Program-made: the position numbers and the translations under genes
Notes under the pieces: model-generated
What the model was told of the DNA's origin: nothing
Database searches by the model: none
What the model saw: only the letters and a program-made list of their open reading frames with translations
Part shown: positions 672-57,282 of the stretch, one piece after another
Layout of the letters: each line of letters starts with the position of its first letter
Numbering within the stretch: position 1 is the first letter of the stretch
Assembly: GCA_905178155.1 (NCBI GenBank)
Contig: CAJINV010000005.1
Coordinates: 612,564 to 676,563 of the forward strand
Origin: Amoebophrya sp. A120
Lineage: Eukaryota; Protista; Dinoflagellata
Direction of reading: 5' to 3'
DNA length: 64,000 nucleotides

Positions 672-3600
672 TCAACCTGGTCTGCTTAGCCTGCACACTC
701 TGCTGAAGTACACGATATCTTTGTTGTTCCAAAGGATACCGTGGTCGGAGGACATTAGCTGTGGATCGCTCAATCCCAGCTCCGCAAGCGCCGGGATACT
801 CACGGTGGGGAATACAACAGTGCTCTCTTCAACACCGCCGGATGGTGCGTCTTTCCCTTTGCATACTGTGGTCATAGCGTTGATACTGTCACCGGCAGTT
901 TCATCTGCCGGGCCTGGTGCTCCAGGAACAAGTGCTGCAACAGCAGGATTTATTTCCATCATCTCCACCTTTTCGACAGAACCAGAAGCCTCCTCGAGCA
1001 CCGGATGGACGATCAAGTCCTCTTCTTCTAGTTCCGACGACAGCCGCCGCCGCAATGCTTCGTCTCGTCCGTGAAATCCCCCGAAAGAAGGAGCTCCTCC
1101 TGCACGACCACTAGGAATGTGTATGTCCTCCTCTCTCTGCATGTGCTGCAAGCTGCTACTTCGCGTCCTCAGTCTCGATGTCGGACCAGAAACCTTGCTG
1201 TTCACGCAAACAGGTGGATCATGCTCGTCATCTTCTTTATTTCCAATGAGAGATTTTGTCTTGTCTGTCATTTGTGGCGCTAGCAGCACACCAGCAGTTG
1301 GGCGTCGTGCCGAGGATGGCACAATACAATTCGGCATGTTGAAGAACATCGTTTGTTGCTGCAGCGGTACTAGCAGCTCTCGACTAGTCCAGGAAGGAGG
1401 CGGCGGCGAGGGCCCGGTAGTGTCTTCTCGCAACAGGCCGCGACTGACGGGCACCGCAGGGTGCGACAGACGACCTACCGGCACACCAGAGCTAACCGGG
1501 GACGCAGCAGCGGCGAAGCCTGGCGGCCGGACGCTGGCAGTACCAAGCTGTAGGTGCGCGTTGAGAAGCTGAGATGATGAGGAAGAGGATGAAGTTGAAG
1601 AGTTGTTGTGTAATGTTTTTGTGTAGCAGTGGTCTTGTTTACATTTACTCCCGGCCCCGGCCGTCCCGCGATCATTGATGATCGTAAAGGCAGCAGATGG
1701 TCGCGGAACCAGAGAAAAGCGCCGCTGATGAAGATCTACCGGCGTCGTGCCTGCAGTAAAGCCGGGCAGTAGCAGCTGAGCGACATTTTCCTGCGGTCGT
1801 TTGTCTGCTGTCAAGAAACTTGCCGTAGAACCCGCGCGAGGCAAGGAGAGACGGCTCACCTGCCGAGGAAGGTTACCAAAAAATGCAGCGGAGGACAAAT
1901 TTTGCAGCAGCAAAGGCCTCTGCCGCTGCAACTGTGAAAATAGCACGTTATTTACTTCGTGATCTTCATCTTCCACGTGCGGGGGAACTGTAGCTCCTTG
2001 GTGCGCCTGCAGTTGCTCCCGAGTCTGTATGCGGCCAGCGGATTTGCTCCCTTGGAGAGTTGTTACAGCTCTGGTAACAGCTGGAGCCTCTGGCAGGACC
2101 TCCGATGGTATCATGTCACTCGTCGATGTGGTTCTCGTTGTTCTATTACCAGCTCCTGTTCCGCTTGCTTTTGGAAGGCCCATCGGCGAAAAGTGCTTCT
2201 GCAGATTATGCCCCGCAGGCGCAATGTTCTTAATGCGAGTCTTCGGCTCGAAAGCGGGCAACTTCTTAGTCAGGACATTCAGCTGCGCTGCTGATGTCGC
2301 TCTTGCAGATTGCAAGGTACTAGAAGGCATGACCTCCGCTAGTCCTACTTCTGCGGGACATTGCAGCCCTAGCTGCACTGGTGCGCGACGACAAGCCGTT
2401 GCAGCTTCTACTCCTTCCGCCCTCTGTTCTGCCGGGCCAGCCGGAGGCGGCTCACCGCTTCCGACGGTTGCGACGAGGCCCTTTGGTGCTCCTGCAGAAG
2501 AACACGCACTGGTCGGCACCGGTCGCGCTCCCAGCGTGCGCCGGAAAAACGTGCTGGAGCTCGATGGCTGCAAAAGCGGTGGTCGTTGTAGTTGCAACTT
2601 CCGGAAACCTCCGGTCAGCCCCGCCGAGAAGGCCCGCTCGCGGGTCGTCGATGACGAGGATGTGCTGGCGTTTTGGTTTCTTGGACGTCCAATTGCAGTT
2701 CCTGAGGAGGTCGAGGAGATGTTACATTGTGGGACTCCTCGCCCAGCAGCTATCTGCAAAGGGCGGTTCAAAAACTCGACTCTGCAGGAGGGTTTTGATT
2801 CAGATTTATTCCATTCGTGTCCATCATCTTCTCTTTCTGCACCAGTGCAGCTGCTGCAAGCTGCTGTGTCTTTTGTCGTGTGGGCGACAGAGTGCGGCGG
2901 CTCTGCAGGCCGTGCCGGTGCGTGATGTGCAGGACGCAGCACCGGACCAAGATTCTTGTCTTGGACATGTAAAAGTTGTGCAGGAGAACGCAACACGTGC
3001 GCGTCGTGGAACCCGGAGGCTACCGGTTTCATGAGCGGGTCAGACCCGTCAATGCTTCTTTCGTCGGCAGTGGAAGACGACGAAGCGGTGTTTTGTTCAT
3101 CTACAGGAAGAAGTTGAGGTTCTTCTTCAAAATCAGCTACTACATCTCGTTTTAGTTTCGTGACTCCGGCGGATCCACGTCGATCATTTCCAACGAGAAC
3201 AGCGGTGTCGTCGTGGTCGTCCCGCCCCTGGTAGTCGACCACTGCGTCATCCACTTCTATTTTGCCCAAGAGTTCCTCGTCCCCCTGGCTTCCTCGTAGA
3301 TGCAGATCCACAGTCGGACAGGAGGACGGACCACTGCCGCTACTCTCACTGTGACCGATGCGGCTTGCTGCCTCGACAATCTCCGGCGCACCTTGCTCAT
3401 CTTTATTATACTCCGCTACAACAGGACGAGGGATCACTGCCGGCGCTAGTTGTACTTCTTCTTGGTGTTGAACTTGAACATGGTGAGCATGATCATCATG
3501 CAACTTGCTCTTCTCACCCGTGACATCACCGCTTTCTTGCCCGCCCTCCGGCAGGATAGATTTTTCAGGCGTGTTGTTCATCTTTCCCGGACTTGTATGA

Positions 3601-4437
3601 AATGCAAAAGCATCGTACTAGTATAAATCGCATGACAAATTTCGTCAGCATGAGAAAGAAAATTTGTAATGGGGATTTGACTTGAGAAAGAAATTTGTAT
3701 TGCATGAATGCGATTAGTACGAGTACGATACTTTTGCACAGGATAACTTGGTCGGGGCCGTATCACGAGCCGTTTCAGGGGTGGGCTCAGGTTCAGCGCG
3801 GGCATCTTTCTATGGAAGCGTCAGGTTTCTTCAAATCGTCAAAGTTCAAATAATTTGTAATGCATAAAATGCGTGACCCGAGACACGTGCGTTGCAGAGC
3901 AGGCAAGTGAGGCCGATTGTAAGCCTGTTTGGGGTTACAGCTCGAGCTGCTAAAGTAGCATGAGAAAATCGCTCTTCTTTGCCTAAACAGCATGACAAAG
4001 TGGATTTAGGGACCACCGAAGTTTGTCTTGCGCCACTTAGAAACTGGGTTCCAACTGGCATCCATTTTATGCATGACAAATTATTTCAACTCTGTCGATT
4101 TCAACTCTGACACATCCATACTTTCTTGTGGCGGGGTAAAAGACCGTCTTCAAGGCGGGTGGCGGCAGCAGGACCGCCGGCACTGATGATGGGCAAAAGT
4201 ATCGCACTCGTACTAATTACAATTATGCATGACAAATCTTGCTCTTAAGGTAAAACAGCATGACAAGTTCCAGTTTTCATGCTGAGCAAATTTGTAATGC
4301 CATTTATACTAGTACGATACTTTTGCAATGCATAGTACTGATGATGGGACAACTACAGGTGATGCAGCTGCGTTCGGCGGAAGCAACTGATGCCGGACCA
4401 CCTGCTCCCGGTGGGGCAGCGGCGCGGGGGCAGGCAT
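672..4437 (-). CDS. Low-complexity hypothetical protein (~1,046 aa) interrupted by 3 introners
   Basis: ORF 672..3581 extends in frame to an ATG at 4437 (MPAPAPLPHREQ...LVIRPRPSPGKMNNTPE) after removing 3596-3750, 3811-4125 and 4194-4348; the remaining 3,141 nt is divisible by 3. A further 3' exon (374-570) via a GC-AG intron is possible but unproven. Confidence 0.7.
3596..3745. mobile_element. Introner family A (150 bp), TSD ACTTG
   Basis: ACTTG|TATGAAATGCAAAAGCATCGTACT...AGTACGATACTTTTGCACAGGATA|ACTTG; excision restores the frame. Confidence 0.92.
3811..4120. mobile_element. Introner family B (310 bp), TSD CTTTC
   Basis: CTTTC|TATGGAAGCGTCAG...CTGACACATCCATA|CTTTC; closely similar copies at 21075 and 27784. 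Confidence 0.92.
4194..4336. mobile_element. Introner family A in reverse orientation with an atypical 12-bp direct repeat
   Basis: Reverse-complement homolog of 3596-3745; flanked by ACTGATGATGGG at 4182-4193 and 4337-4348; left TAT terminus missing; removing 155 bp restores the frame. Confidence 0.85.
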
Positions 4438-5677
4438 TCTGATCTTTTCGAATGCTGATATACTTGTTAATCAGAAATAAAATCACGAATCACCGTCTCG
4501 TTGCTGTCATTCCGTGTACGCTGTGCTGCGCGGAAAGGAGCGAATCTGCGAGACAAAAATCAAGCTCTTCTTGCAAATTATGGAAACGCATCAACAAAAC
4601 TCCACCCAGCTCACTGCTCCCCACTTTTGGTTCCCGCTGGTGCGCTTGCGCAGAGAAGGCCGCTTGAAGATGACACGTAAAATCACAATCAGCTAAGCAG
4701 TGGCAGTGGGCTCTTTGCATCACAATTTACTTCTTTCACGCAGAAAAAACACTCAGAATTCACCAGCATTTTTACTCTCGGCAGCTACTAACTTCTGTCG
4801 TTCTCAGGCGTTCTTTGTTTCCTCGGTATGGCACTTCACAACGACCTTTTTTCTGAGCAGTGCACACTCGTCACAGCACGTCAGACAAAGATTGATACAA
4901 CCGACAGGATCCAGAACATAAGCTTGTCGCACGACACGACACGCTGCCACAACTTCTATGTCATTCATAGGGGCGCTATCACTAAGCAACGATGACCACG
5001 AGAGGTAATTTGATATCGCTGGTTTGCCTTGGCATTCGATTTTTGTTTTTCGAAACAGGATGCATTTTTCTCTTCATCAAATTCAGTATCATCTTCAGCT
5101 CTTCTGCTGTTGAGCGCATCTTCATCATCAACGACCGAAAATTGAAACCTGAATTGTTTTCGTTGGTAAAAAGAAGTTCGAGTTCATAGTTATCTTTCTT
5201 TCGCCCTAAATCTGGAGGTTTTTTGCACTACTTTTCCAGATGTTGCGAACGGACTACAAAGGAAAAATATCGTGAAGCTCAAATAAATCTGCCATTGTTT
5301 GTAGTTCCCCCGAAACAGTAAACAGCAAGTTCTCCTTCTCGTCGTAAAACGGTAATGTTTATATCCTCAGTTTTCATCGCGTTCATTGTAAGTTACTTAA
5401 GCAAGGACGAGAGATTCGTCGGCGTTGTGCGGTGGCATTTGGTTAAATTGTGTAAAGATCACAAAAATTCATATAGGTGAAAAAGTCAGTGTAACATTTT
5501 TAGTGCTAATTGCAGCCCTGACAGTACTAAAAGTTTATATAGCAATCTGGCTTTGGCATAGAGGCAGTCATCAATTTCCTTTTTTCTTTAAGGGTTTTGT
5601 ATCAGGTTGACATAGCTTCTGTTGATAGATGGTGTTGCTTTTCATTTTCGTACAAGAAGTCGCACGGTGTTGCAGCT

Positions 5678-6806
5678 TACTAAGTGGAAAAATGTCTGCA
5701 GCAAAAAAAATCAAAGTTTTTGGTAGGGCAGTTTGTGCCCTTCTCTTCTCGCCCGGACTGCAGCGCGCTGGTGAGCGCCGTGGCCTTCATGCTTGGGAAC
5801 TTGACCGAGGTGCTGTGCTCCATTCCTGCTGCGTCGTTTGGTCGAAGCTCCAGCGCGAGCTTGAAGGCCCCCTAGTAGTCAGCCCAAGCCTTAGTCCTCA
5901 CACTTCTCGTTCTGGAAGTAGTTCCTTTGGTCATGATGCTCCTGTCCAGCATGCCGCGAACCTCAGCCAGGTACTTGGGCGTGAAGCCCCTCCCGCCAAA
6001 AGTGGCAATTTGTAATGCAGGTCTCGCGTTACAAATGGCCTTTTCTTCTGACCCGTTCTGGGTCAGCTTTCTGGACCGCATCACAAATCTGAGCTCCTGA
6101 ATCGGCAGAATGCCGTGCTGTGAGGGTTCAGATTTGTGATGCAAAACGTGGCTCCGCGAAAAACGTCTGCACCTCGTCCAGTGAGGTCCCCAAGTGAGGT
6201 GCAGACGTTTTTCGCGGGAGGGGGGGAAAGTGGGGCCCATAGCCCGTGTTTGTCTGCGCCGCGAAAAACGTCTGCACCTCCGAGATCGGCCTCCAGATGA
6301 GGTGTCCTCGGACACCTCTTCGGAGTCGTCCCGAGTCGCGGACCTCCGGGGCGACAAATTGCGGCCGCCCTTTTCGCAGGGCCCCGACCTGTATCGAGCT
6401 CAATTTGCCGGCAAAAGCCTGCAACTTGAGCTCATCCCCGAGTCGACCTCCTCCGAGGCCGCGAGGTTTGAACAAAAAGCGAGTCTGTTCCTCAGCAAAT
6501 TCACCCCATTCCCAAACAAGATATGTACGCGGTAAATCGTCAGGAATCAGGAGGGGGTGTGGGAACTTGAAGAACTACAACTGCGAACCCGGGTGGACGA
6601 CGTCCACCGATACCGACGCACCGAGTCCCCCGGTGGCTGAGTTGTCTCCTCTGTTTCGTCCGCCGAGGCCTTGCCGGAATACCTGGCCTACCCATTCCCT
6701 TGATTTTGTTTCATTTTGAAAAAAAATAAACACACAAGCAGGCGCCCGACTATGTAGGATGCAAAAATTTTGATTTTTTTAGCTGCAGACATTTTTCAGC
6801 TTAGTA
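5678..6806. mobile_element. Intergenic non-autonomous DNA transposon (MITE-like, 1,129 bp), ~45-bp TIR, TSD CAGCT
   Basis: CAGCT|TACTAAGTGGAAAAATGTCTGCAGCAAAAAAAATCAAAGTTTTTG...CAAAAATTTTGATTTTTTTAGCTGCAGACATTTTTCAGCTTAGTA|CAGCT; GC-rich interior with several hairpins; no credible ORF. Confidence 0.9.
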
Positions 6807-7589
6807 CAGCTAGCTCTTCTTTGATAAGCAGGTAAAATTTCTTCCTAGCTCAGTACTGGTTAGTGGAAGCGCATTTAGATGAAATTACTAGTGTACACCA
6901 CATTCGTTTTGTTGCTTTGTGAAGCTTGTTGTTCCACTTATGGCGTTTTGGATTTTGACCGGAAGTCATGACAAACAAGCTCCTCGTCCATTGTTTTCAA
7001 AAATGTTTTCTATTCATTCTCTAGAATCAAAATTTTTCTCGCCTGCTTAATTCGCTCACTGTATCGTACACAAACGTCTTCGTTATCTGCTAATGAGTTT
7101 GAGTTCTCTATTAATTTGCAAACAATATATTTGCAGCAATCGTCGCATCGTGCACCAGAGTTTACGGCACAACGAATATTACACTAAGTACATTCATCTG
7201 CGATAAAACCTCCCTCCTTATGGCTTGTAGCCCTGCCGCAGCATCACGTCCACGAAGGAGCACACCTGATTCATATATGAGTACATTCATTTTATCTTTC
7301 GCAATTTCTCATGCGCATTCATATACACCTTCGGGTACGGATGCAGTAGAGCGGCCTTGTTTTAGGTGTGTAAAACCAAAACGAAAACTTCATTTAGAGT
7401 CCACATACCGGTCCCTTCAGATTGTAAAACAGCCGCTCGTTTTGCTTTATGGCAAGCTCAGGTGGGAATGTCTCAAAAATGGAGCAGGTTTGGTGTGCAA
7501 CATGGTTGCCAAAGACCCAGATCACACAGAGAAAAATTTGTTGTATCTCTTACTCTTAGGTCCTGACGCAATTACATGCAAAAAAAACC

Positions 7590-8187
7590 TGTTCCACATT
7601 CGAGAAATTCCACCTTGGTCCGCTGGCATATGGTTGATCTCCTTCTGGTACGCTCGGTTCCAGCGCGGATTCGTTATGTGCGTGAGGTCGGAATACCTTT
7701 TTGATTTTGATGCCGGTGCACAAACTCTTGCAACCAGTTGCGACGACATCTTGATGTCACTCCTCGTCGCGGTAGAAACTCGATTGCACATGTTGCCTGT
7801 TGGCGACTTCTTCGAAACAATGGTCTTATTTTGCATCGTTTGAATAAAGGTAGAACGACATTTTTGCCTCGACCTGCAGTTCAAGAAAGACACAATAAAC
7901 GTCGTGGCAGAACCTCCACAAACAGTAATATACTCGCCAATCCCCTTTCTTCGGTTGAACCCTTGTCCGCTCTCCACGCTCGGTGGCAACTCCTGGCCCT
8001 GGAAGTCGGTTTTCTGCATGGTAATTAAGCCGGACTTCTGGTCGGTCACAAACACATCCGTTTGGTGCGTGATCGGGTTGTAGGCAAACATCGGTGGTCG
8101 CCGCGGTCGCGCCGCGTCCCAACCGAGGCAGTACCGGTAGGGAAAGTTGTTCGTGGTTGGGATCCGGGCCTTCTGACGCCAATATTC
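7590..8187 (-). CDS. Hypothetical protein, partial model with GT-AG introns
   Basis: Exon EYWRQKARIP...PMFAYNPITHQ...RRKGIGE joins YSDLTHITNPRWNRAYQ across a GT...AG intron; both ends of the gene are uncertain. Confidence 0.4.
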
Positions 8188-8861
8188 CTGATACAGTTTT
8201 AGATTCAGTGACTAGATTGTTGATCACATAAATTGCTTTTGATCAGAAAGATGGTTTGCAAAACCAAAACATCACACATCCATGCTCTACAAAGAAGCTT
8301 TATTCGAATCGAATCTTATCTAACTTCTATGCTTGCACAGTATGAGTTGTGTCGAATAAGTGTTGTATAATTGATGTACCTTGTAGATCTCTTGCTTCTT
8401 TGGGCTCAGGGTCGACAGCTGCCGCACATCCCAGTCTGCGTAGGGCGGACGCTCCGGGGACTGCTCCGCTGGGTACTCCGAGTAAGTCGCGACGGATCGA
8501 CAAGTATACCACGCTCAGAGGATGTGAGAATTTACTTACACAGTCACGACAAGGTTGCATATTTTGGAGGCATTCGCTTTCATCTGTATACAGGACTGCG
8601 AATCGCCTCGGGCGTCGTCATTTCATGACCATCATGACGCCGGGGTGATTCGAATGCGACATCAACTCTGTAAATGTTTATACATACATCAACTTTCTTG
8701 CCCTACGGCGTTTCACTGTACCGTATTGCATGGAGGCGATGCAATTCCACGTGCACAACCGCGGTACTGACCGCTTCTAGTACAGCACTAAGCGCATGAT
8801 TCTGCCTCACAAGCGAACCGTCTCTGCCTTGTCACTGCACAGGACATCATACATTATCACA

Positions 8862-10635
8862 TCAGCTGAGTGGGCGATAACTAGAGAGCGCTGGATCGGC
8901 GGAACGTGTGCGTCCGCGGGCAGATTCCGTGACCACCTGAGTAATTGGGATTTTTGGTGATATTAAGAGGACGAAATGCAAACGTAGTTCATCAATATTG
9001 TAGGGCTACACGAAACCAATTTTTGTTTTGAAGATGAACCATACAGAAAGAACATATATATTACCGGTTGCCGACTAATTGGGAACCCGTTTTTTGCGGT
9101 CGTGTCCATTCCGTACCCGCCACTGCCGTAGTCGCGATTCAGCTCCGCCCGGTCTTCCTGCAGCACCGGCACGCGCGCGTCGCGCCTTTTGTTCGCCGGA
9201 TTCGTGCCCCACTCGTCCAGGTACACCGATTTTTTGTCGTCCTTGGACTTGGTCATGAAGAGGTTCCCGGCGGATTTGGGGCGCATCAGCTCCCGGGGCT
9301 GGAAGGTGCCGTCCAGGTTGTCGTACCCCTCCAGCTTCGGGTACTGGTTCTCGTAAATCGGGACCGGCGGCCCGTAGCTCGCCTTGCCCAGATTGTACAT
9401 TTGGTGCAGGGAGGTGATGTTGGGCCGGTGCACCGGCCGGGGGGTTTCCATCTGGGTTCGCACCTCCGGGTTGTTCAACTGCAGATCGATCATGGTAGTC
9501 GTCACCGGGTTATGAACTGCAAAAGTATCGTATTCATACTCGTATAAATGCATTACAAATTTTCTCAGCATGAGAAAGAAAATTTGTAATGCGGATTTAC
9601 CTTAAGGAAGAGATTTGTAATGCATGATTGCAATACGAGTACGATACTTTAGCACAGGATACGGGTTGTGGTACGTGTTCTTGTTCGCGTTCTCGTCAAA
9701 GTTGGCAAATCTCGGGTCGTCCTTGTATAACAGTGCACAACTCCCCCTCCCCCTCATTTGTAATGCAAAATACCCAAGTCACCCTTTGCCTCTTCGCAAG
9801 TTCTGGCTGCCCAAATAGCATTATCCTCTTGTACAAATTTGTTATACAAAACCGGCAGTCTTGCTGATGCTTGTATTGCCGTTCATGCTATACAAATGAG
9901 GGGGAGGGGAGTTGTGCACTGTTATACCTTGTAGTACTCCTTCATGAACTCCTTGTTGTACTTGCTATGCGGGGGCGCGGCCCGTGACTGCAAGTGCGGT
10001 TCCTCGACCACAACTGCTGGGTGGCCACTGTTCATCATTCCTGTGCTGGTCCGCGACTTGTAGTGCCCAACACCCCCCTTGCCGGACAGGTCGGCGTGCT
10101 TGTTCTGCTCGGAGGTCGGCGATGGCGCCATACCGGGCGGCGTCAGCGGTGGGGTCCCGGGACGGTGCTGGACAGCAGAGCTACCGCCTCCGATCATAGC
10201 ACCAGAAGTTGATTTCGAGGAAGTGCTGACTCCTTTGCCGATCTCGACCTGCTGTTCTGCCGCTCCGGGAGAGGTGACCACGGGCAAAGTGTCGACTTCC
10301 ATAGATACGTCGCCGGTCGTGGTAGCAGCTCCCTTCTTCTGCACCATCTTCGGTCGCAACGGGGCCGTCACGGGCCGCTTCTTGTGGTAAGTCGGCGCGA
10401 ACACCGCGGTTCTTGGCGGCTGGTCTGTCGCGGTGTGGACGATCTCGCTGTTGTGCATGTGGCGCTGGGGCCACTTCTGGCCCCCGGAGGTAGAAGATGT
10501 GGTCATCGTTGCGGTGCGCGGCCGCTGCGCTCGTGCACCGGAGGCCGGAGTTCTCGCGGACGGCTGGGACCGTGCGGAAATGGTCACCGGGGCCGCGGAA
10601 AAAGGCCGCGGGTTCACAGAGGGATTCAGATTCAT
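8862..10635 (-). CDS. Hypothetical protein; 2 introners plus 1 GT-AG intron
   Basis: ORF 9922..10737 joins ORF 8963..9571 through the exon DDPRFANFDENANKNTYHNP after removing both elements; GT-AG intron 8937-9064 leads to a stop at 8862. Start could be 10635 or 10737. Confidence 0.7.
9511..9661. mobile_element. Introner family A (151 bp), TSD CGGGT
   Basis: CGGGT|TATGAACTGCAAAAGTATCGTA...TACGATACTTTAGCACAGGATA|CGGGT. Confidence 0.92.
9726..9926. mobile_element. Introner family C (201 bp), TSD CCTTG
   Basis: CCTTG|TATAACAGTGCACAACTCCCCCTCCCCCTCATTTGTA...TACAAATGAGGGGGAGGGGAGTTGTGCACTGTTATA|CCTTG; ~36-bp TIR. Confidence 0.93.
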
Positions 10636-10736
10636 CCTTTCTTTCGATATGGAGGGCTGGGTTCTCTCCTCACTTTCACAACCACCAGCCCATCGGAGAT
10701 AGCAAATCAATTTGACAGAAGTTTGTTGTTTCACCA

Positions 10737-12587: not shown

Positions 12588-12807
12588 TCACATACTCTAC
12601 TCATTTTAGCTTTCACGAACAGATCATCGACGACCCTGTGAACGCGTAATATTCGAATCAAACACGATATCGATATCAAAGTCTACTACTGGTCCTTGAC
12701 TTTTGTTTCTAGAAAGGAACACCAAAAATGCATAGAAAAGTACGACGCGGCTGTGCAAACGGGAACCGTAGAGGATTTGGTCCTCGACCTCTCTTGTTCT
12801 TCCGTTT

Positions 12808-16206: not shown

Positions 16207-19200
16207 TTGCAGCTGCTGCTTGGTCGACTGGTCCGCCCCACTCCCCTTCGCTGCAATCATTTCACTGTTCTGCTGTTTTTTCGGCGGCTGAATGACGAAG
16301 GGCGCGACGACTTTCGGGACCGAAGCGGAAACTGTGCCTGTGTTGGTACCGCCCGCAGCCTTGCTTCCGGATGAACCTCCAGGGTTGGTGTTGACAATTT
16401 TTGCCGTGGAGCTGGAATTTGGCGGCGGGGACAGCAGCGACCTTTTCTTGTTCTGCACCAAGCTCGCCTCGTCGACATGAAGGCTGGACCTCGCGGGGAC
16501 TACCACCGCATTACAACTCTGCTCGGTGTTTGTTCCAGCAGCAGCCGCCTGGTCCTGCTGTTCAAACGGCGAGGACCGACTGCTGCTCGACTGCGACCCG
16601 GGCAAAACGGGCACTTCCATCTGCAAGAGCGAGGTTGCTGGCTGGAAAGAAGAAGAGCCGCTTCCTATTACAATGAAAAATGCCCCCATCCCCAAAGTTG
16701 CAATAATTTGTCATGCGAAGTTTCCAAATGAAAACTTTTTGTCATGCATGAAAGGAGTGTGAATCTCTCTAATGCAGAGTCTAGGCGTATACAGCATCGC
16801 TTGCATGACAAGGGCCGCTCTTGCTGGGATCTTTTGCAATACAAGTTTTTGCTATTCCCGATTGAAGATCTGTGATGCTGGTAGATGTAAGAGGGCGAGT
16901 GTTTCATTTGGAAAGGTTTGCAATACAAATGCTCCAAAGTTCAAGTTCTGCGGTGGGGGCACTTTTCATTGTCATACTTCCGTTGCGCTGGATCAGCGTT
17001 TGGTTCATTCCCAGCAGCGTGTTGGTCGGGGACAAACGACTCGACAAAGAGTTTTGGTTTTGCTGCTGCTGTTGCACCACCTCTTCGACGTGTTCTTGTT
17101 CGTCTGGTATGCTTTCCGAGCCGGGCAAAATGGTCCGTGTCGACGTGATTCCGTTATAATCCCCAAGGAGACTAGCACTCGATGTCATGGTCATGGAGGG
17201 TGGTCGACTGGCTAATATCTCGCCAGCGATATTAGAAGTGGTCCCGTTCGAATGGTTGTTGTTATTTGATGTTCCGTGCAGGTTCATCGCAGAATTGTTA
17301 CTGGTAGAGCTTGATTTTGACAAAACCATCTCGGAGCTGGGCTCGGTGCCGGAAGAAATCGTCTTCTGCATCTTCTGAAGGGGAACGAAGCCGTGCTTCG
17401 AACTGGTTTTCTGCTGCTGCTGCACTCTCAACATAGAGGAAGAGTTGTCTGGTGCTGGGTCGACCGACACTGAAGACGACTCCGAGTGGTGACCTCCGGA
17501 GGAAGAAAGCGACAAAATCCGGCTCATTCCGGAGGCTTGTCTAGCGCCAGTCGCAACTACTCCATGCTGCAGCAATTTAGGATGTCTATTTTTAGTACTG
17601 TGCTTGTTGTTTCCTGGCTTGCTCGTGTTGAAAAAGCTGGTTTGATGTGCAGGAGCACCTCCTCCTATTGGTCTACTACTGCTCGAGGAGGAACTATGGC
17701 GCTCTCAAGTGTTACATTCTCAACTGTTACATGATTTGTCATGCAAAACTACAATCATCATCATCATCATGTAGTGGACACCCGCACCCAGCGCCACAGG
17801 TCAAGGATCCCCTCCCCGGGGGGGTGGGCGAGGAAGCACTTTCGGCGACCTCAACATACAAAAGCCGAGCGCTACCACGGCAAGTCGCCCCAATAAAAGT
17901 GCCAACCAGTCGGGAGCTACCCACCACACCTGATCAGTACAGCCCGGCCAGCTAGCCGAGCGCGACAGCCCAACATACAGAACGATCCAGGACCCGACCC
18001 ATTTTACGCCTTAAGTTTTTGTTCTCACGGAAGAGACGACGTACCCCTTTGGGCTACTTAAGGGGCGAGACTCTCCCTTAAGCCGCAACCCCACCCGGAC
18101 AGGGGAGGCTGGACCATTTGCGCCTTACCTGCGGCACGGACGAAAAAGGCAAGTGCCGCGAACCGGAGATGTCAAACCATTGGCCAGTTGTTTGTCACTG
18201 CTGACTGGCAACCCACCTGGGGCACAGCGACAACTTAACGGCTTAGTTTCTGCGTGGCGGTCAGAGTGCAACTCCTTGACTTATTCTGCAACAGAAGCAA
18301 AGGGTGGGAGGGGGGACGGGGGGCGTAAGCCGGAGTCGCGACGGAGCTTACCTTGAGCTTACCTTGAGCCTACAATCAGAATCTACACAATCAAGCTTCT
18401 TAGCATGACAAATTCTTTGAGGGCCAAACAGGCTCAGACTCTGTGCCAAATCTGTCATGAAAGACGCGCAAGGTCACCCCGTTCACTTTTTCCATTCTTG
18501 CATCACAAATTCATGTACATGTATATGTAACAGTTGAGAATATGACAGTTGAGAACGCCATAGGAACTGCTGCTGTGTTCTACGCCAGTCAAAACACTTG
18601 TTGGTGGGTTGAGCAACCGGGCTATGAAAGCCTCAGGTTGGAAATCCTCAAAGTGGAAATAATTTGTAATGCAAAAAAACGACCCCAGTTGAAGCGGCAT
18701 TTGTAGTCGGCGCATGACAAAATTCCCGGGCCTTTAAAGCATGTCTGTCATGCAGGTTAAGGCAAAGGGGTGCCCTTCTGTCGTGCTCGGCAGCACTCCA
18801 ATTCTTCACCCCTAGCAGGACAATGGTTGGCTTCCATTATGTCCTCTGCAATACAGTCTTTTTTGCCTTGCATATCATGCATCACAAATTGTTTCCATTT
18901 TGAGGATTTCCATTCTGAGGCTGTCATACGAGCACCGACGCTCGTAGTGCCACCTGCTCCACCCACTCCGCCGTATGCCCCGCCGAGCTGCATGCCAACG
19001 CGGCCCTCATAGTACAGGTTGCCCCGGGATTTTGGGGGCGAGGTGAAATACCGCGACTTCAGGTGCTTCGCAGGGACTACCTGGTGCTGTTCCTCTGAGG
19101 AGTTGTTGGGGTTAGTCGCGGAAGTAGAACCACCTATAGCACCAGCATTTTTATCCTTCGACGTCGCGTGAACCGTGCGGGTTCTACGTCGCTTCGCTTG

Positions 19201-40955: not shown

Positions 40956-42960
40956 TCACCCTTGCTCATTCTCCTGGTCACGACCCTCGTCCTCGGCAAA
41001 ATCATCTCCCTCCAGAGCATCAACATCCTCATCGTCGTCCCCCTGCTCGTCGTCTTCTCGCTGGGCTTCGAACTGCAACAAGGCTAGCTCTATCAAATGC
41101 AAAAATGTCTGGGTCTGGAACGTTGCCGGGTTTATCATGCATATTTTGCATGACCCAGGACGTCTGCAATGCACGACCTAGCATCCCAGATTTTTAGAGG
41201 GCTTCCTGATCCTGATGCCTACTCCGCATGACAAATGCCCTCCCCGCGTAGCACAAACTAGACTCCTTTTGCTTGTCATGCAGTACAGATTTTTTCAGAG
41301 TCCAAAGTTAGCATCACAAGTTCCAACCTTCCAGACCCAGACATTTTTGCAGTTGATAAGCTCCGCGTCGGCCTCATCTTCTTCCAGAACGTCGTCACTG
41401 AAGCCGTCAAGAGAGCCTGCGGCAGCGCGGCCAGAACCAGATGTCGTCGACAGAGAGGTTTCATCTCGTATGTTCCTCCCCTCCTCACCGTCAACATGTT
41501 GCAGCGTTGAGATGATACTGTTCATGTTCTGCGACCTACTTCCCAGGAACCTTTCCGAAGACACTTTTTCCCCCGTCTGCCTTAGGTCCTCCAGATCTGG
41601 ACCTAGTTGGAACGCTGGATGCACGAATTCGGTTTTCTCCGCACGGAGGATGACTTGGCTTCGGTTGTTTTTCGCTCCGCTTATCTCCAGTTGGTCAACT
41701 TGGTGCCGGCCGTGGTAGGTGACACGGTCCTGTGAAGACCCAGATCCGAAAGCGGCGGCGCCTTCGCATTGTTCCCTGTCGTGATCCTGACCATCGGTAT
41801 AAACACCTTGTTGCGTCACAGGATCCAGATCCGAAACTGCACTTGTTGCTCCCGATTCTTCAATAAAGCTAGTGGTTCCGATGTTATGCACGAAGTACAC
41901 CTTGCTCTTCCTTTCGTTTTGCGTGGCCACCGGTCGCGGCACCGTGTATACCGGCTTCTTGCCCTTCTTGTTCGCGAAATCCTGCGGCGCGATCTCGCCA
42001 CGGTACCGCAGCAGAATTCCGTCCGTGGCGTTGACGAAGTCGAAGAAGGATCCCTTGACCCGATTTGCGCAGAAGAACCGATCCGCGTTGCAGGCGCACT
42101 GCGCCAGACAGCGTTCGCCGCAGTAGCCCTTTTCCTGCCACTTTTTGAACATGCCTAAGTGCTTCATCCGCTGCCCCTCGATCATCGCCAGCGACGCCGT
42201 TAATAACGCCCGCCCCGCGTTTCGCCAGTCCGTGGAATGCTTCGGCCGGAGCTCGTGGGGAATCACTTTCGTCGGATACATATCAACTGTAAAAATGTCT
42301 GGGTCTGGGAAATTCTGACTCTTGTCATGCACGTTTTGCATAAGCCATGATGTCTGTGATGCATACACTAGCAATACAGATTTTTAGAGGGCTTCGTGAT
42401 GCCTATTCCGAATGACAAATGCCTTCTCAGCGTAGCAAAAACTGCATTCCCTTTGGTACTCATGCAATACAGATTTTTTTGGAATCCAACTACAGCATCA
42501 CAAGTTGCATTCTTCCAGACCCAGACATTTTTACATTTGATAATACACCGGGTCATCCAGGTCCTTGCCATGGTCGTGGTTCCCGCGGTATCAAATGTAA
42601 AAATGTCTGGGTCTGGAAGAATACAAACTTGTGATGCTAAATCTGGATCCTGAAACAATTTGTGTTGCATGAGGGTCAAAGTCAAAAGCTGTCCACTTTT
42701 GACCAAGTTGGGAGTGAGTTTGTCATGCAGAATAGGCATGATACAGATCTCACAGAATCTGTCATGCTAGATCCTGCATTCCAGACCTCATGCGTCATGT
42801 TGAACCTGCATGACAAATCTTGCAATCTTCCAGACCCAGACATTTTTGCAATCCATACGCGGTACCCGATCGGCCGCGGGTGGTACTTCTTGTTGCGGTG
42901 CAGCGTCGGTACCTTCACGTACTTCGCCTGCGCCGGCACATACGAACTGCTCGACGCCAT
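40956..42960 (-). CDS. Hypothetical protein (396 aa, Cys cluster, acidic tail); 3 introners
   Basis: MASSSSY...PIGYR|GNHDHGKDLDDPVY|PTKVIP...DAEL|ALLQFEAQ...; 1,191 nt remain after excision. Confidence 0.75.
41091..41358. mobile_element. Introner family F (268 bp), TSD AGCTC
   Basis: F-type TIRs and an exact TSD. Confidence 0.93.
42281..42542. mobile_element. Introner family F (262 bp), TSD ATACA
   Basis: F-type TIRs and an exact TSD. Confidence 0.93.
42589..42857. mobile_element. Introner family F (269 bp; opposite orientation to 42281), TSD CGCGG
   Basis: F-type TIRs; interior colinear with 19969-20230. Confidence 0.93.
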
Positions 42961-43817: not shown

Positions 43818-46800
43818 TCACTTTTCCCCAACTGCGGATGACGAGCCACCGCTACTCGTCGTTGTTCCCGACGAGTGATTCCTATCCAGGTGCTGGCAGT
43901 TGCTGTGCCCGCGCCTCCTAGTCCTCGTTCTCCTTGGTTTATTCCGTCCGGAATTCATTGCCACTTCCCACCCGATGTTCAGGGCTGCTGCGGCCACGTA
44001 AAAACACGACAACGAGCGCAGCGTGCTCTCGGTGGCAAGCTGCACGGCGTGGGCGTTCTTCTTGGCCGCGGCTTTTGTGGCTGCTTTCGACATTGGAGGG
44101 GCTGCGGTAGTTGTTGTGGGACCATCTTCACTGGAAATTTTCGTTGCACCGGAGGCAGAAGCTTTGCTTCCTCCAGAGCCTGTCCCTGTGTTGCCACCGT
44201 AAGTAGTAGGAGCACTCCCAGAAGATAGATCCTCGTCCTCTGCAGGTACTTCTTGCTGCGCCATCTGAAACAGTGAGATCACCTGATTTGCAATCAAGGG
44301 CCCGACCACGTAGTTCATAGCCTCGTCAATGATGTTAAATGTTGCGAGGGAATGCAGTTTTTGTTGCGTGGACGAGGATGCGAGCACCTGCACTCCGCCC
44401 ATGGTCGCCTGCATCAAAAGAAGCAGAACCAACGCGGTCGTGGTAGGGGGAGAGTTGAACGCCTTTTCCAATAGGGCGCGGGGGTTGTAATGATGCTTTT
44501 CTCTGTGCTGATCGTCTCCTTCGTGGTCGTTTTTGAGCGAATTCAGGAGTTCTGTGACTTGAAATACATCCGCATCATCCAGAAACGACGTCAAAAATTC
44601 ATCATCTTCTTGCGCGCCGCCGCTAGTATTGCTGCCGAGGGTTGTGTCGCTTTCGTTGGTTGTCCCCAACTTCTTTCTGTCCGTTGAAAAGGCCTGTCCT
44701 CTATCGTCGTTCTCGTTCATCGCGCTTTTCATTGAAAGACCCTCTCTGGAGCTTCTACTGTCGTGAGGAACAGCACCAAAAGACCGCCCCTGGAGAATCG
44801 TACTAGTGATGCCCAGTGGCGGAAGGCGTTGCAAACGAGGTGATTTGTGTTCTACGGATTTTGCTCCCGCCGACGACGTTTCGCTTTCCCCACTAGAGTC
44901 GCCACGACCAGCCACGGCGCCGCTGTTCCGCTTCCTATCATTTCGTGACGCTGCTAGAAACCTCATTGCAGCAGGCGAGATGCGGGGCTGCAGGTCACGC
45001 TGGTCCTGTTCCGAGGAAAACAACCCTTGGAGTCTCTGATTCTGTCTCGGGTCGTCGGTTTTTTTCACCAAAATTTGCGGCAACACAGTGTAAAAAGTTT
45101 GCACGGCACAGAACATGGCCAGCTGCGGACCCGCACGCATCACAACACCATCCCGCTTCATGCACTTCCTGACCCGGCGAGCAGTGCTTTTCAGAAGTGA
45201 CGCGGCCTTTCTTGATGTTGTTGCGCTTCTGGTCGTGGCACTGTCTGCGGTAGGTGCCGCTGAAGACGACATCGCAGCGTCCAGTTCTTCTTGGCCCTCG
45301 CTATCTGGTGTCCTACCACGCTGCATTGCGGCAGGACAGCCATCGGATGTCGCAGCGTCTTGACCTTCCTCAGTGTGTGCCGGTTTCGTCGGACCGTCGC
45401 CTTTATTCCGCTCCAGCAGCCGAAACAGCCAGGGCTGCACCACACTTGCCGCAAGCACCGCACCAAACAACGGCCCCATCGTGACCAAAAACGCGGTGAG
45501 ATCCTTCGGGAGCCCCGCGCCCTTGTGACACAGGTGCGAGGCGGTGTTGGGGGCCAGGTTGCTTTGTGCGGAAGTGCCGAGGGAACACATCATCCACTGC
45601 GTCAAAAGGAGGATCTGCTGCTTGCGGTCTTTCGATTTACTCGCAGACGAATGGGGTTCCTCTTCCTCGTTTATTTGCCCTCGCCGCAAGTGCTCATGAA
45701 CTTCGTCACCAACGTCGGCCACAAGAGTGGCCGCGAGGTCATGATCAACTTCTGTGTCCTCTGCCGCATTGCTCTTGCCAGCACTGGCTGTGGAACAAGC
45801 ATCCGTAGTCCTAAATTTGGTGGACATTGTGCGCCGCTGATTTGTCGTTTCTTGCCCTCGCCCGCGCCACTCGGCCGACGACTCCGACCCGAAGTCAGCG
45901 CCGCACAGTTCTTCCTCGGGCCCGCCGAATAAGAATGTCTGGCTGCCAAAGCAAGTTCCAGGAGAACTCCCCGCGGCCGGGGAGGAGCAGGCGGCGGTCG
46001 TTGCGGGTGTGTAGGTGTTCGCCTTAATGTCCTTTTCATAGCTTGATACAGATGCCGGTGTGTTTGTACTGTTTTCGCTCTGCCTGCCGGATCGAAATGC
46101 ACCGTGGCACAAACTCCCTCCGCCAAGGGCCAAGGCAGTGGTGACGATAAACACGTTTGCCAGGACGACATTTTTGATCCAGCTGTCCGGACTTCCACAG
46201 GCAGCCACGTACTGGCCCAGGCCCGGGATCGCGTTTGTGAACAGTGGCAACTTCGCCAGCGCCGCCGCTTGCGCCTGCTCCTCAGACATTGCAGCTTCCT
46301 GGGATGCTGATGAAGCCGGATCATTCACGTCGTTCCCTACTAGGTCGTCATGATCATCAGCATCGACCATCATATTAACCACGTCTAGATCCTCAGTCTG
46401 ATCTGCTTCACCAGCCACTGCTCGTCCTGCCGATTCTTCTCTATCACTTTCTAGCAAACAGCTGGTCGTGTCACTGCTGACCCTCGAGGTCGAGGCCACA
46501 CTACCGGGCAAGGAGGGCGGGATCGAAAACAATTCCTTGGTGATCGTTCCAATTAACGGTGCCATAAAACCTTGGACCGCACCGCAAAGCCAGTTATTCA
46601 GCCAGTAGGACACAAGCACCTTGTCGAGGTTTCCCTCCTCCCATCCCGCCTCGAGCCCGAGGAAAATTATGACTGCGTCAACTTACCCAAACTCAACTTA
46701 CCCAAAAACTTTATTAGCGATTTTTCATAGCTAGAAGGCATGCTGATTTGTAATGCCTAAAAGTAGTAGCTATGGTTAGCTAGATAGAACTTCATATAGC

Positions 46801-48410
46801 TAATTAAGACCGTTTTCACGCGTGTGTAGAACCCGCAACCTCCGCTACCAACGATCACGGATTCCCTTCCGCTGCCAACGATCGCGGAGGCTGAGCTGCG
46901 TTGCCACCGCGTTGCGACACCATTCACAAGCTTCATACCTTGGCTGGATTTATACACGAAGTGATAGCATGCGACAGGTATTGAGATATTCTATCATTTA
47001 TGCCATTGAATTGAAAAAAATCCGAGGCATCTTTTTTGTCTAATCACGTTGGTAGGGTGATTTTTTGCCAATCCAAAACCTAGCATCGGGGAGGGGGATC
47101 ACTCATCCCCCTGGTCCATGCCTAAAAGTATACTGCTTCCCCGATGCTATGCCCCATGCAAAAGCAATATAATCTGATTTGATAGCATCAACTCGAAGGA
47201 GTTTTATCATGAGACACAGCATCGTTGGGGAGGGGATCCGTGATCGTTGGTAGCGGAGGTTGCGCCTTCTACACACGCCGGAAAACGTCCTTTTCGAAAT
47301 AGCTATTTACCTCAACTAGTAAGTGTAGACTGAGCGGCGCCGGATAGTAGGTTCGGACTCTAAGTAGCTAATTAAAGTGGTTAGTTAAATTTTTGGGTAA
47401 GTTGAGTTTGGGTAAGTTGACGCAGGCATAAAAATGAGCGCCACACTGATAACCGCGGTCGTGATGGACACTTTGCGCAAAAGCTGGATTTGTCTTTGGA
47501 GGTCCTGACGATGGGCTTCGGCTTCCGTGCTCGCGTGATCGTTTCCATCTTCATCGTTTCTGTCGCTTTCGCGAAGGTTCTGTCTTGCCTCGACCAATTC
47601 CCCGTACAAGTGACTGCCAATCACGGACACAAGCCCGCCCATGGAAGTTTTCCATCCGACGAGAAAGTCGTTCTGTGTCAACGGCGTCGGCGGCCCCATG
47701 CCTTCGCTCTTCGCGTCCGCGGCGGCGCCAGCCGTGAGAACTTTGGCAATTTTGGGTAACAGCAGCTGGTTTACCGTTCCGTCGGGAAGGCAGATGAGGC
47801 CCTGCATCATGCCCAAGAGAATCAGAGTTTGCGTCTTCTTGCTAATTTTCGGGAAGTGGACCCGCGAAAGTTTTTTCCGCAACATCGAGGTTGCGCATTG
47901 TCTAACAGCTCTGGTTCCGTCTCCGAGGCTTTCCATGCAGGCGCCGATTTTGTCGAGTAGCTGGTATCCATCTTCTTCCACCACCTGTGAAGTCGTGTGC
48001 TCGTCTGCAGGACGCGGAACAGCAGCAGTATCGGGATGACGATCATGACCCACTCTGGCACTACAACTCGCAGTTGTGCTACTGCTAGTACTCCCTTCAA
48101 GCAACGGACGGCGCAGCGAGGAAGCGAATCCAGACGCTGCTGTACTAGAACACGTCTTTTCGTTATTGCCAGACCGCGAGAATGATGAAGTTGCTACTCG
48201 GAGAGTCGCAAATTGGCTCGCCAATCTGTCTGCGGGGTCTATTTTTTCCGTGTCGTCCGCCACCGAATGGACGAGTGGAGCCTTGTGCAGTAAGCTTCTA
48301 CGCTTGAGCTTCCTCCCGAAACTCGATCGAGTAAAAACCGACACCCAGCAGCTGAAAAGCGCAACGGCAACGCGCCGACGAGAAGACGAAGAGGCTCGCA
48401 TGTTGTTCAT
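43818..48410 (-). CDS. Multi-pass membrane protein (~1,274 aa), possibly a divergent MFS-like transporter with long low-complexity loops
   Basis: ORFs 47385..48410 and 43818..46619 fuse (SVALIF|LGLEAGW...LVSYW) after removing 768 bp; about 10-12 hydrophobic segments. The MFS assignment is an inference. Confidence 0.6.
46668..47430. mobile_element. Introner family I (763 bp), TSD AAAAT
   Basis: TATGACTGCGTCAACTTACCCAAACTCAACTTACCCAAAAA...TTTTTGGGTAAGTTGAGTTTGGGTAAGTTGACGCAGGCATA; a second ~57-bp inverted pair at ~46812-46868 and ~47230-47286. Confidence 0.92.
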
Positions 48411-51400: not shown

Positions 51401-51603
51401 TGATTGGCGAAAGACGAACAGAAGATCGATAAAACCTGGTGCAGGAATAAAAGTTAGAAACTCTTTCTCATAAAATTGCGAATCAAAGTTAATAGATACG
51501 GTAGGTGGAGCGACATCATCTTCGAGCACGACTGAAAATGTTTCTTCCGAACAGGAGAATATATTCCTGTTGCAATTATCCGGCGTAGAAGATCGTCCCT
51601 CTG

Positions 51604-54513: not shown

Positions 54514-57282
54514 TTATTGCGCAGTTGCTATCGCGTAGCGGTAGTTGACATTATTCGAACTATCACGCACCTCTAGAAGCTGTACCCCGTCGATATCCAT
54601 ATCACTAGGACACCGATCCTCAGTTTTTTTGTGCTCTGTCCTCATCATATGCGTAGCTTCGCTTTCCTTTTTGTAGTAGTTGCATGAAGGTTCTTTTAGT
54701 ACGTGCGCACCAGTAGGACAAGGACTTCTAGCAGTTGCATGCGCGAATCCGATTTCTTTTCGCAGTGTAGGTCCTCCAACATGCTGGAGGAGATCTTCTG
54801 TTCTGGAAGAACGAGGTTCATCATTCGACACATCAGTGTAAGCTGCGGAGTGGTTCCTGCTCTTTTTCGTTGCAGCACCGACATGCAGCAGTTGCAAAAA
54901 CCGGTCGGCAACTGGACGTGCGAGCTTTTTATCCCATGAAAAAAGCGTTACAGTTACGCATTTGTTGGAGTTTCTGCATCACACATTTTCTCTGTGTGTC
55001 AGAGAAAACTTGTAATGCAAAGTAGATCCTAAGGGAAAATACGTAGGAAACGAGGCTCGCAAGCATTTCCTGCGTGACAAAGGTTGTCTGTCTTGCGGCT
55101 CCTGCAACACAATGTGTGACTGTAACATTTTTTTCTTGCGATACTTTTCTTTGTGAGCCCAGTCGGCTTCGAACTTCTGCCTGAGCTCGTTTTCCTCCCT
55201 CTCCTCTTCCAACAACATATCCTGTGCAAAAATGTCTGGGTCTGGAAACTTGTGATGCAAGTCTGTGAACCGTGGGCGCACTACAATATGCAGCCAAGCA
55301 TGACAAGTTTTTGCACGTGCCATGTGCTTCGTTTTCCGCATGGCAAACTGCGTTTTTGCATGACAGGCAGGAGGCCCCGCTCCTGCTGCTTACGCATCAC
55401 AGATCCAAGAGTCATGCCAGACAAGCATGACAAGTCCTGCATTCTTCCAGACCCAGATACTTTTGCAATGCATACAGCACGAATTTCAGCAATTCCCGGA
55501 CCGTGTTTCGCCTTTGCGCGGTCCTAAACTGCGCCATCGCGAGCTCTTCCCGGCTTCTTTTCTCCTTTCTTTTCCCCACAGAACTCCTCCAGCACCGAAC
55601 GGTTTTGCCCATCGAGTTCAGATATGGATTGCAAATATGTCTCAGTCTGGAAACTTGTAATGCTCAAAGTGGATGATAGACGCACTGCAATACGCGGCAA
55701 CCATGCATGACAAATTTTTTGGCTGCCATGTCTTACGTATTCCGCATGGCATGGCAAACTGCGTTTTTGCATGACAGGTAGGAGGGCTTTTTCCTCCATA
55801 TGCAACACAGATTCTCGAGTCATGCCAGACAAGCATGACAAACCTGCATTCTTTTTCTTGCAGACCCAGACATTTTTGCATTTGATATCAGATACCAGAA
55901 CGTCAACGCTGTCCTCAGGTGTTCCGCGTTCTGCTTCTCGGTTATGGTTTGCTTCCGCCAGCACTTTAAAATAAATTCCCCGAGAAACTTCTTCCGGAAG
56001 AACTTCCTGGCCGTGTCGTTCTGGATCTTTGTTTCCGGTCTGGCATGCAGCACCGTGTAATCTCGTTGCCAGCGGAGGAAAAACGGGCGGAGGATGAAGT
56101 CCAGTTCGTGCTGGTCCAAAGACGCTTCAAACTGCTTCCTGCGCGTCACGCGATGTCTCCAGAGAAAGAAGCTCCGCTTTTGCAGACCAGGGAAGCGAGT
56201 GTTCCTCGTAAAAGCGTTTAGCTTCAATTCCGTGCTGGTCCGCCAGTCGCGCTTTTTCCTCGCCGCGGCAAACCAGATGGGCACGGTGCGCTGTTTTTTT
56301 CGAAGAGACACGGACTCCGCTAACTGGTCCGTAAGCTCGCGAAGCTGCTGGCGGCGAAGGACGCGAAGCTTCAGGAGAAACAGTACCTGTGTGAAGAGAA
56401 GAAGTACTTACAACTTCCGCTACAGAGGTGGTGGAGTTTACTTTTTAATACCCCGTGCTTGATGTAGATTGGAAATGTAAATGATTTCCTCCGACAAGGA
56501 CAAGCATCTTCGAGTAATATTCAAAAGTTGTTTTCTCCTAACTGTACCTTGCACAACAACTTGCGCACATACTGTCGCCTGGGCCGCACCCACCGCAGGT
56601 AAATGCGATCTCGTGCACTGTGCCACGCCTGCCAGGACCGCTGCAGTAAGTTGCGCAGGGCCCGCAGCTCCAGAATTTTCTCCTGCTCGTTCCTCGTTGT
56701 TTGACTGCTCCTCACGGCGGCTCTCCAGCAATCGCGGAACACGAAGCGCAGCTTCGCTCTCTGCGCAAACTGGTACGCTTTGATTTTCAAAACAGAAATC
56801 GCCGCCTCGCGCTGCTGGAATGCGTACCAGCTCCTCACCGCGTTCAAAACTTTGCGGTGCTCGCGGAACCGGCAGGCGAGGGTGAACGATTTCCAACTAC
56901 GGAACTCCTCCTGCAGCACCCGCGCGCGGTGCAGCCCCTTCAACACGCAGCTGGCTTCAAACAGCTTCCGTTTCTGGATCGCGTATTGCTTCAACCCGGT
57001 GAGGAAGCACGACCGGAGAAACTCCTTCAGCTGCCCCTTCTCCCTCTTCCGTCGAAGCGCGGTGAAGGCGCGCAGGTTTTTCTGCTGCGAAGCGTTTTTC
57101 CGCCAGCGGTGGAAGGTTTGGGCCTGCTGCTTTCGCTCGAACGTTCTCGCGACATTCTTCTCGGACGTTTCCAACTTGGCCTCCCGCTTCACGCGGTTCG
57201 ACCACGCGCGAATCACGCGGAGAAGTAGAAAAGACGACCATACGCCGTCGACCGCGAAAAGGAACAGATCCTGGCCCAGCAT
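54514..57282 (-). CDS. Sfi1-like Trp-periodic basic helical-repeat protein; 3 introners plus a GT-AG intron (ends uncertain)
   Basis: Repeated LxxxFxxW-type units (FHRWRK, FRSWKS, VRSWYA, FLWRHR, FLRWQR); frames join after removing the elements at 55623, 55218 and 54930 and the intron ~56387-56547. Similar sequence at 52915-53367 may be further exons. Confidence 0.65.
54930..55143. mobile_element. Introner family J (214 bp), TSD CTTTT
   Basis: TATCCCATGAAAAAAGCGTTACAGTTACGCATT...AATGTGTGACTGTAACATTTTTTTCTTGCGATA; the join gives HKEK|LARPVADRFLQLL. Confidence 0.88.
55218..55474. mobile_element. Introner with F-type ends (257 bp), TSD CAACA/CAGCA
   Basis: TATCCTGTGCAAAAATGTCTGGGTCTGGAA...TTCCAGACCCAGATACTTTTGCAATGCATA. 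Confidence 0.9.
55623..55887. mobile_element. Introner with F-type ends (265 bp), TSD TCAGA
   Basis: Interior similar to 55218-55474; the join gives FWYL|NSMGKT. Confidence 0.9.

Follow-up and report, generated by a model that had tools for sequence, protein, structure and literature searches.

Introduction

Introners of Amoebophrya sp. A120 (Dinoflagellata) have been described as non-canonical introns of ~240 nt, bounded by inverted repeats that consist of TAT, seven variable nucleotides and an A-run and flanked by 3-5 nt direct repeats (Farhat et al. 2021, PMC7789003), and 16 of the 20 families listed, from a total of 58, have been classed as 'TIR DNA' (terminal inverted repeat, TIR) of unknown superfamily (Gozashti et al. 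2025, PMC12130899; these and the other papers cited are represented by the portions of their text consulted). Here we analyze a 64,000-nucleotide stretch of A120 contig CAJINV010000005.1 (assembly GCA_905178155.1, positions 612,564 to 676,563 of the forward strand), referred to as the window, in which such introners share one internal nine-base word, GCATBACAA, that is, GCAT(G/T/C)ACAA. The elements themselves are known and the internal motif, both selected and spaced, is apparently unreported: the consulted portions of the two A120 papers do not mention an internal shared motif, a spacing rule, selection or clustering at 35-85 nt for these introners, the supplement text of PMC7789003, which leaves figures S19-S25 outside it, contains neither GCAT nor ACAA nor the words internal and subterminal, and no report of the motif was found in the literature searched, a scope that left out subscription papers and Repbase.

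The window elements are the same non-canonical introns, with ends of TAT, 7 nt and an A-run in families A, D, F, G, H and J, and in M with TAC for TAT, and with direct repeats of 5 bp; a protein encoded in the window has 98% identity to one named for Amoebophrya sp. A120. They display the features that characterize non-autonomous TIR DNA transposons, or MITEs (miniature inverted-repeat transposable elements), namely TIRs, a duplication of fixed length, no coding capacity and many copies, and their word has the anatomy of a subterminal repeat, recurring near both ends, in both orientations and in conserved form, with a putative role in binding. Subterminal transposase-binding repeats are carried by Ac and En/Spm, and the BED-domain sites of the hAT element Hermes are reportedly of this kind. 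Typical hAT duplications measure 8 bp, with 5 bp in the hAT5 subgroup, and the 5-bp duplication found here is not the typical hAT value; a Transib/RAG-like affiliation was rejected, as such termini read CAC instead of TAT or TAC and only the 5-bp duplication agrees. In the Emigrant MITE, subterminal repeats are bound by the Lemi1 transposase (PMC1636448), and there, too, a short word lies in both orientations inside the ends of a TIR element, its arrangement mattering for binding; in the present elements, one word spans several TIR types and fills the whole 150-320 bp element. Euglenid nonconventional introns combine TIR-paired ends, duplication-like repeats and non-canonical junctions with a CAG/CTG end motif unlike that of the present elements, and the consulted text does not mention an internal array (PMC11282704). 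Finally, TA..TA termini are shared with IS3EU/GingerRoot, but those elements usually make duplications of 6 bp (PMC10045372) as against 5 bp here, and we assign no superfamily.

Results

A shared nine-base word

With both strands counted, the window holds 67 exact matches to GCATBACAA, against a mean of 2.15 and a maximum of 8 in 100 dinucleotide shuffles, and 64 of these fall inside 29 TAT- or TAC-ended TIR elements of ~9.5 kb in all, where 300 shuffles of the element sequences give a mean of 0.61 and a maximum of 4. At least one exact site is present in 26 of the 29 elements and none in X1, H1 and F8; the middle base within elements is G in 34 cases, T in 18, C in 12 and A in one. Matches outside the elements (4717, 16508 and 45137) occur at the chance rate, the interval from 28.1 to 41.0 kb has none, and 11 GT-AG introns of the same window (2251 bp in all; RNA joints define nine of them and two are inferred) contain no exact site and a single profile site of at least 9 bits. 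All elements but one, which reads TAC..GTA, end in TAT..ATA, and 27 of the 29 are flanked by a duplication matching at four or five of five positions, the sixth base being mostly unmatched and the duplication accordingly 5 bp.

The preliminary description of this DNA, made from the sequence alone, had attributed the motif to otherwise unrelated element families. The sharing is borne out, and the sites that it quoted near element ends are correct to within 2 bp (family B at 3855 and 4071, 45 and 42 bp from the ends; F at 20008 and 20181, 40 and 42 bp; E at 17736 and 18500, 42 and 55 bp). "Otherwise unrelated" is too strong, as the seven families listed above share a TAN-N7-AAAA end and all families share TA..TA ends with 5-bp duplications, families B, C, E, I and X keeping the TAT and not the A-run. 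Its "intergenic MITE", which we take to be M1 (5678-6806), does bear the motif but lies within a transcript, past the coding end and probably in the 3' untranslated region, and is skipped in RNA contigs; each of its sites is at least 333 bp from an element end.

For a larger sample, the end pattern of family F was used to retrieve metagenome loci, which amount to 555 kb and are hence enriched for family F. Of 147 loci, 126 were used, 10 overlapping ones being dropped together with 11 from other sources, in which the motif occurs at most once per locus and which seem to have matched the pattern by chance; a protein from a metagenome locus shares a 90% cluster with an A120 protein, and the sample represents further loci rather than an independent lineage. 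An element finder blind to the motif and demanding a duplication match of at least 4/5 called 360 elements (5/5 in 308, 4/5 in 52), and the logo of their 720 ends displays the TAT + 7 nt + AAA inverted repeat. Exact sites are present in 336 of the 360, at a density of 8.3/kb inside elements (765 sites) versus 0.78/kb outside and 0.23/kb in long open reading frames (ORFs; 41 in 178 kb), far above the background level to which the preliminary description had exposed its claim. Among the 319 remaining outside sites, 230 lie no more than 250 bp from a second unassigned site and probably mark elements that the finder overlooked. Motif density is flat with respect to TIR or duplication decay among the detected elements (1.66-1.81 per 100 bp). 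Coding-like context surrounds 253 of the 360 elements, with only 6 non-coding-like copies, and element bins reach a summed contig depth, which is not copy number, of 10^3-10^5 versus 26-32 in unique DNA.

Constraint on the core and spacing of the sites

Element interiors formed 57 clusters, of which the 16 largest were merged into eight lineages by links and ends. In trees of ten families, the eight core bases of the motif change at 0.27 of the spacer rate on internal branches and 0.48 on terminal ones, versus 0.99 and 1.05 for the middle base, which serves as a control for the small bias that may arise from picking motif columns in each family's majority sequence. Purifying selection thus acts on the eight core bases. 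At 585 of 716 ends, the distance to the outermost site is 30-50 bp, and at one it is below 30 bp, with peaks at 32-33 and 40-44 bp for sites reading TTGT inward and at 34-35, 43 and 46-48 bp for the opposite reading. Furthermore, direct pairs 31-33 bp apart account for 16-43% of adjacent spacings in seven of the eight lineages, and with one copy drawn per lineage their median share is 26% against 2.7% under the null, where none of 3000 draws was as high. The flanks of the two units are only 31% identical over 355 pairs, which argues that the pairs are not tandem copies. A strict 16-bp lattice of sites, seen in the window, blurred in the larger set, where only peaks at 16-17, 31-34 and 47-50 bp were retained.

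Matches between lineages, 35-79 nt long, are gone once the motif is masked; masking erases true links as well (from 1509 to 9 matches between two F clusters), and the families may therefore still be anciently related. Descent from a single lineage without constraint, which the preliminary description had named as the observation that would undo its reading, is refuted, unless the choice of motif columns biased the rates, given the constraint on both the position and the sequence of the motif.

The element ends have a pattern of their own. End positions 4-10 (seven bases) change at 1.0-1.5 times the spacer rate, mostly without covariation between the two ends, so that the ends look bipartite (TAT, spacer, A-run); identical variants of these positions recur in families A and F.

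Removal from RNA

Removal was followed in RNA contigs of one sample and denotes the presence of a spliced form, not its efficiency; RNA-like runs were accepted as RNA because their contigs skip GT-AG introns, and the raw-read runs X9 and X10, whose coverage is confined to fragments of elements (in 2 and 1 of 30 bins), were left unused. The contigs skip element + 5 nt at X1, A3, C1, D1, B3 and two decayed introns (7448-7630 and 20727-21058). Between 17689 and 22278 they hold 1254 nt in both runs, the length that remains, with a 654-codon open frame, when the decayed intron and two GT-AG introns are taken out along with E1, B2, F1, G1, B3, A4 and G2; for six elements of this interval, removal is contig-length accounting, that is, evidence at the level of the sum. 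The minus-strand frame is also longest when element + 5 nt is removed, both for the 20 elements that lie outside 24-28.5 kb (M1 and the weak case of F8 excepted) and for six of six within it. Where the duplicate copies differ, RNA keeps the transcript-upstream copy in three of three cases, and a 3' cut ~4 nt past ATA would fit these as well as M1. At the DNA level, none of 15 among the joints listed skips an element, and DNA-like contigs enter elements at genome depth.

The orientation of the word on the transcript is free. Minus-strand genes contain families A, B, C, F and G in either orientation, and in 106 elements of confident orientation one reading accounts for 245 sites and the opposite reading for 203, with all sites in one direction in seven elements and in the other direction in five. 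C1 shows only GCAUNACAA on the transcript and G1 and G2 only UUGUNAUGC, and all three are removed (G1 and G2 by length accounting). Moreover, the introns at 7448-7630, 8505-8879 and 20727-21058, with best motif scores of <6, 8.7 and 8.3 bits, are nevertheless cut at element + 5, and the motif is therefore not required for removing those introns. With both orientations in use and motif-less introns removed, the word does not behave as an intronic splicing signal on single-stranded RNA. The earlier proposal that its presence on both strands explains orientation-independent removal is not supported, given these three introns and M1, and the link of the motif to splicing is weakened; symmetric element ends explain two-way removal without it. 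In each of five families tested, agreement between the middle bases of the two outer sites, left and right, does not exceed the shuffled level (4% versus 5% in the largest).

Three further observations concern RNA. M1 is skipped at 5674-6804, or element + 2, through a joint without shared letters that leaves 3 extra nt, a clue to the true cut register. A 10-nt microexon (21060-21069), between the decayed TAT..ATA intron and B3, is retained in the contigs. RNA of runs X3 and X9, from two studies, contains the left end (85 nt, corresponding to 19969-20053) of a family-F element that belongs to another locus, joined to identical foreign sequence in both.

Spacing between neighboring elements

Adjacent elements are clustered: 84 of 254 gaps measure 35-85 nt, against 21 +/- 4 (maximum 34 in 500) under a null that assumes uniform placement in ORF-like sequence, and four are shorter than 35 nt against 16.5. 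Gaps in the window behave alike, 9 of 28 falling at 38-74 nt (e.g., 3745/3811, 9661/9726 and 20230/20301), and only 5 of 93 close neighbor pairs belong to the same family. Clustering of mostly unlike families at this range would be expected if new copies were tethered to existing sites; possible contributors are such tethering to bound sites, an opening of the chromatin and a lower limit on exon length, and the site-to-site distance between neighbors is no tighter than the gap itself, which adds nothing for tethering.

Other features of the window

Coordinates of the elements and related introns are collected in Table 1. A putative kinesin-like gene, recognized by eye, spans 19864-22278 (minus strand) with five elements inside; a putative SPX-like start, likewise by eye, lies at 39150-39678 (minus), and a glyoxalase-family gene at 60699-61953 (minus). 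The interval 58900-60500 is GC-rich (up to 67%), with overlapping open frames and no Pfam match, and is possibly another mobile element. In the larger sample, nested-looking long elements with 5-15 motif sites were seen at L068:9991-11021, L026:10304-10760 and L049:571-1051, and L022:11405-12270 is an 866-bp TAC..GTA element with TIRs and zero motif sites. The likeness of TTGTNATGC to a Sox-Oct composite core is presumably a coincidence.

Table 1. Introner elements and decayed introns of the window (positions in window coordinates; TSD, target-site duplication)
Feature	Coordinates	Description
A1	3596..3745	TAT..ATA, TSD ACTTG; sites at 35, 53, 69, 100
B1	3811..4120	TSD CTTTC; exact sites 3855, 3990, 4071
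A2	4193..4334	3 exact sites; left TIR without outer 8 nt; 12-nt flanking duplication (region 4182-4348)
M1	5678..6806	TAC..GTA, 1129 bp, TSD CAGCT; exact sites 6010, 6078, 6134
Decayed TAT..ATA intron	7448..7630	TIR 9/25; no site of at least 6 bits; RNA skips 188 nt = element + 5
X1	8505..8879	TIR 18/25; best site 8.7 bits, none exact; RNA skips 380 nt = element + 5
A3	9511..9661	3 exact sites; RNA skips element + 5
C1	9726..9926	sites of at least 7 bits all read GCAUNACAA on transcript; RNA skips element + 5
D1	16666..16976	3 exact sites; RNA skips element + 5
E1	17695..18562	868 bp; exact sites 17736, 18403, 18500; removal by contig-length accounting
B2	18623..18928	orientation opposite to B1/B3/B4
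F1	19969..20230	exact sites 20008, 20181
G1	20301..20579	six one-way sites (48, 79, 128, 161, 209, 240), UUGUNAUGC on transcript
Decayed TAT..ATA intron	20727..21058	TIR 9/25, duplication 3/5, best site 8.3 bits; RNA skips 337 nt = element + 5
B3	21075..21384	3 exact sites; skipped in RNA after 10-nt microexon
A4	21432..21588	4 exact sites
G2	21741..22016	six sites, one direction; UUGUNAUGC on transcript
H1	24490..24623	best site 10.4 bits, none exact
C2	24866..25108	orientation opposite to C1
G3	25419..25976	558 bp
F2	26086..26348	TSD CGCGA
G4	26387..26667	orientation opposite to G1-G3; all sites reversed
B4	27784..28090	3 exact sites
F3	41091..41358	3 exact sites
F4	42281..42542	2 exact sites
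F5	42589..42857	3 exact sites
I1	46668..47430	763 bp; single site, 81 bp in
J1	54930..55143	1 exact site
F6	55218..55474	outer sites 33 and 42 bp from ends
F7	55623..55887	3 exact sites
Decayed F-like element	63323..63530	no duplication recognized, no exact site

Discussion

In Amoebophrya A120, these elements are TIR transposons without coding capacity, and they are excised from RNA as introns. The enrichment of the word, selection on its core, its fixed geometry, the lack of need for a given RNA strand or for pairing, and removal without the motif together favor its reading as a site in double-stranded DNA, for which the transposase-bound subterminal repeats of Emigrant are a precedent. We therefore propose, with a probability of roughly 0.55, that the 9-mer is the putative double-stranded DNA site of one shared protein, probably a transposase or its cofactor, which would mobilize all families. 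One such protein would bind several sites per element on one face of the helix, 31-33 bp corresponding to about three turns of B-DNA and the two distances of the first site from an end, 32-34 and 40-45 bp, differing by about one turn; the bound protein would then pair the element ends ahead of 5-bp staggered cuts. Copies retaining the array would leave more progeny, and the word would be maintained though other family sequence no longer aligns, and removal from RNA would depend on the ends and the duplication rather than on the motif. The common trans factor of the preliminary description thus gains from the constraint in ten families, the fixed end distance and the 31-33 bp spacing, and stays putative; of the two identities offered for it, binding on the transposase side is favored over the excision machinery, which loses ground, and both are putative.

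Several observations weigh against this proposal. Lineage E lacks the excess of direct 31-33 bp pairs (4%), inverted site pairs occur at 16-17, 33-34 and 48-50 bp, and the best overall site period of 16.4-16.6 bp is not a clean multiple of 10.5. TIR positions 11-30 vary between families, and subterminal repeats usually accompany one TIR type. No transposase family was found by Pfam among 122 of 136 locus ORFs or among 12 window ORFs; the M1 interior, with a protein-like minus-strand frame interrupted by one stop at 5683-6030, has no relative in Pfam or in a protein search, and a search of the 555 kb of loci and the window for long TIR pairs up to 15 kb and for ORFs in long elements found no autonomous element. 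The consulted text of PMC7789003 likewise reports putative transposases in A25 and none in A120, and argues against general mobilization by transposase. Among the 32 closest pairs (at least 92% identity) the core changes at 0.54 of the spacer rate versus 0.45 in distant pairs, as would also be expected from selection on resident introns; the sample holds ~50 copies of each family, and because active ancestors outside it still fall on terminal branches, this close-copy comparison cannot decide. Given the constraint between close copies, the motif may have a helper role in splicing, and the three motif-less introns may form a separate class.

In such a helper role, a protein occupying the array, either on the DNA while it is transcribed or on RNA of whichever reading, would mark young elements for non-canonical splicing, older introns having adapted to manage without it. 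The core constraint that lasts on terminal branches and in the closest pairs speaks for it, as do the many elements in coding-like context, where failed removal would be costly, and the fact that U1 small nuclear RNA is undetected in A120, according to the text consulted (PMC7789003). We nonetheless regard it as doubtful, because the three introns without a site of at least 9 bits are removed at element + 5, M1 is removed though no strong site lies within 332 bp of an end, and C1 and G1/G2 are removed with opposite words on their RNA. Unlikely, in our estimate, is a host protein, of chromatin or of DNA architecture, whose binding would bend or open the element, transposition gaining indirectly and neighbors inserting in the opened flank: one word across unlike TIRs, the 16-17 bp base period, the exclusion of neighbors below 35 nt with their piling up at 35-85 nt, and the preference of introners elsewhere for nucleosome linkers (PMC9860276) would all suit it, but a host protein's site might be expected beyond the elements too, whereas the word is at chance outside the window elements and scarce in ORFs and GT-AG introns.

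That the sites serve as complementary stems, folding the intron RNA so that its ends meet, is very unlikely. Predicted minimum-energy folds, read here without a shuffled control, pair 44 of 106 window sites with another site and leave 83 of 106 mostly paired; against this, the six one-way sites of family G form zero site-site pairs, the middle bases of facing sites do not covary, and pairing alone would not fix one word across all families. It is still harder to credit that the motif is a functionless relic of common descent. The TAN-N7-AAAA end of seven families and the weak cross-family matches seen before masking, which itself erases true links, do allow for old ancestry, yet core bases change 2-4 times more slowly than either the spacers or the motif's own middle base, and site spacing is kept over unrelated spacers.

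Returning to a shared protein at a double-stranded DNA site, a bolder version would give it two jobs, mobilizing every introner family, with copies steered to 35-85 nt from old ones, and marking the element on the DNA template for cutting in either direction. We hold this to be distinctly improbable; if true, such a protein would amount to intron definition in double-stranded DNA, in an organism without detected U1.

For the question of how the tens of thousands of non-canonical introns of A120 spread and are removed, the spaced and conserved word offers a bait for the protein, a mark by which autonomous elements could be recognized and a means of parting mobilization from splicing, and it suggests that many TIR families may depend on one factor, not on many transposases.

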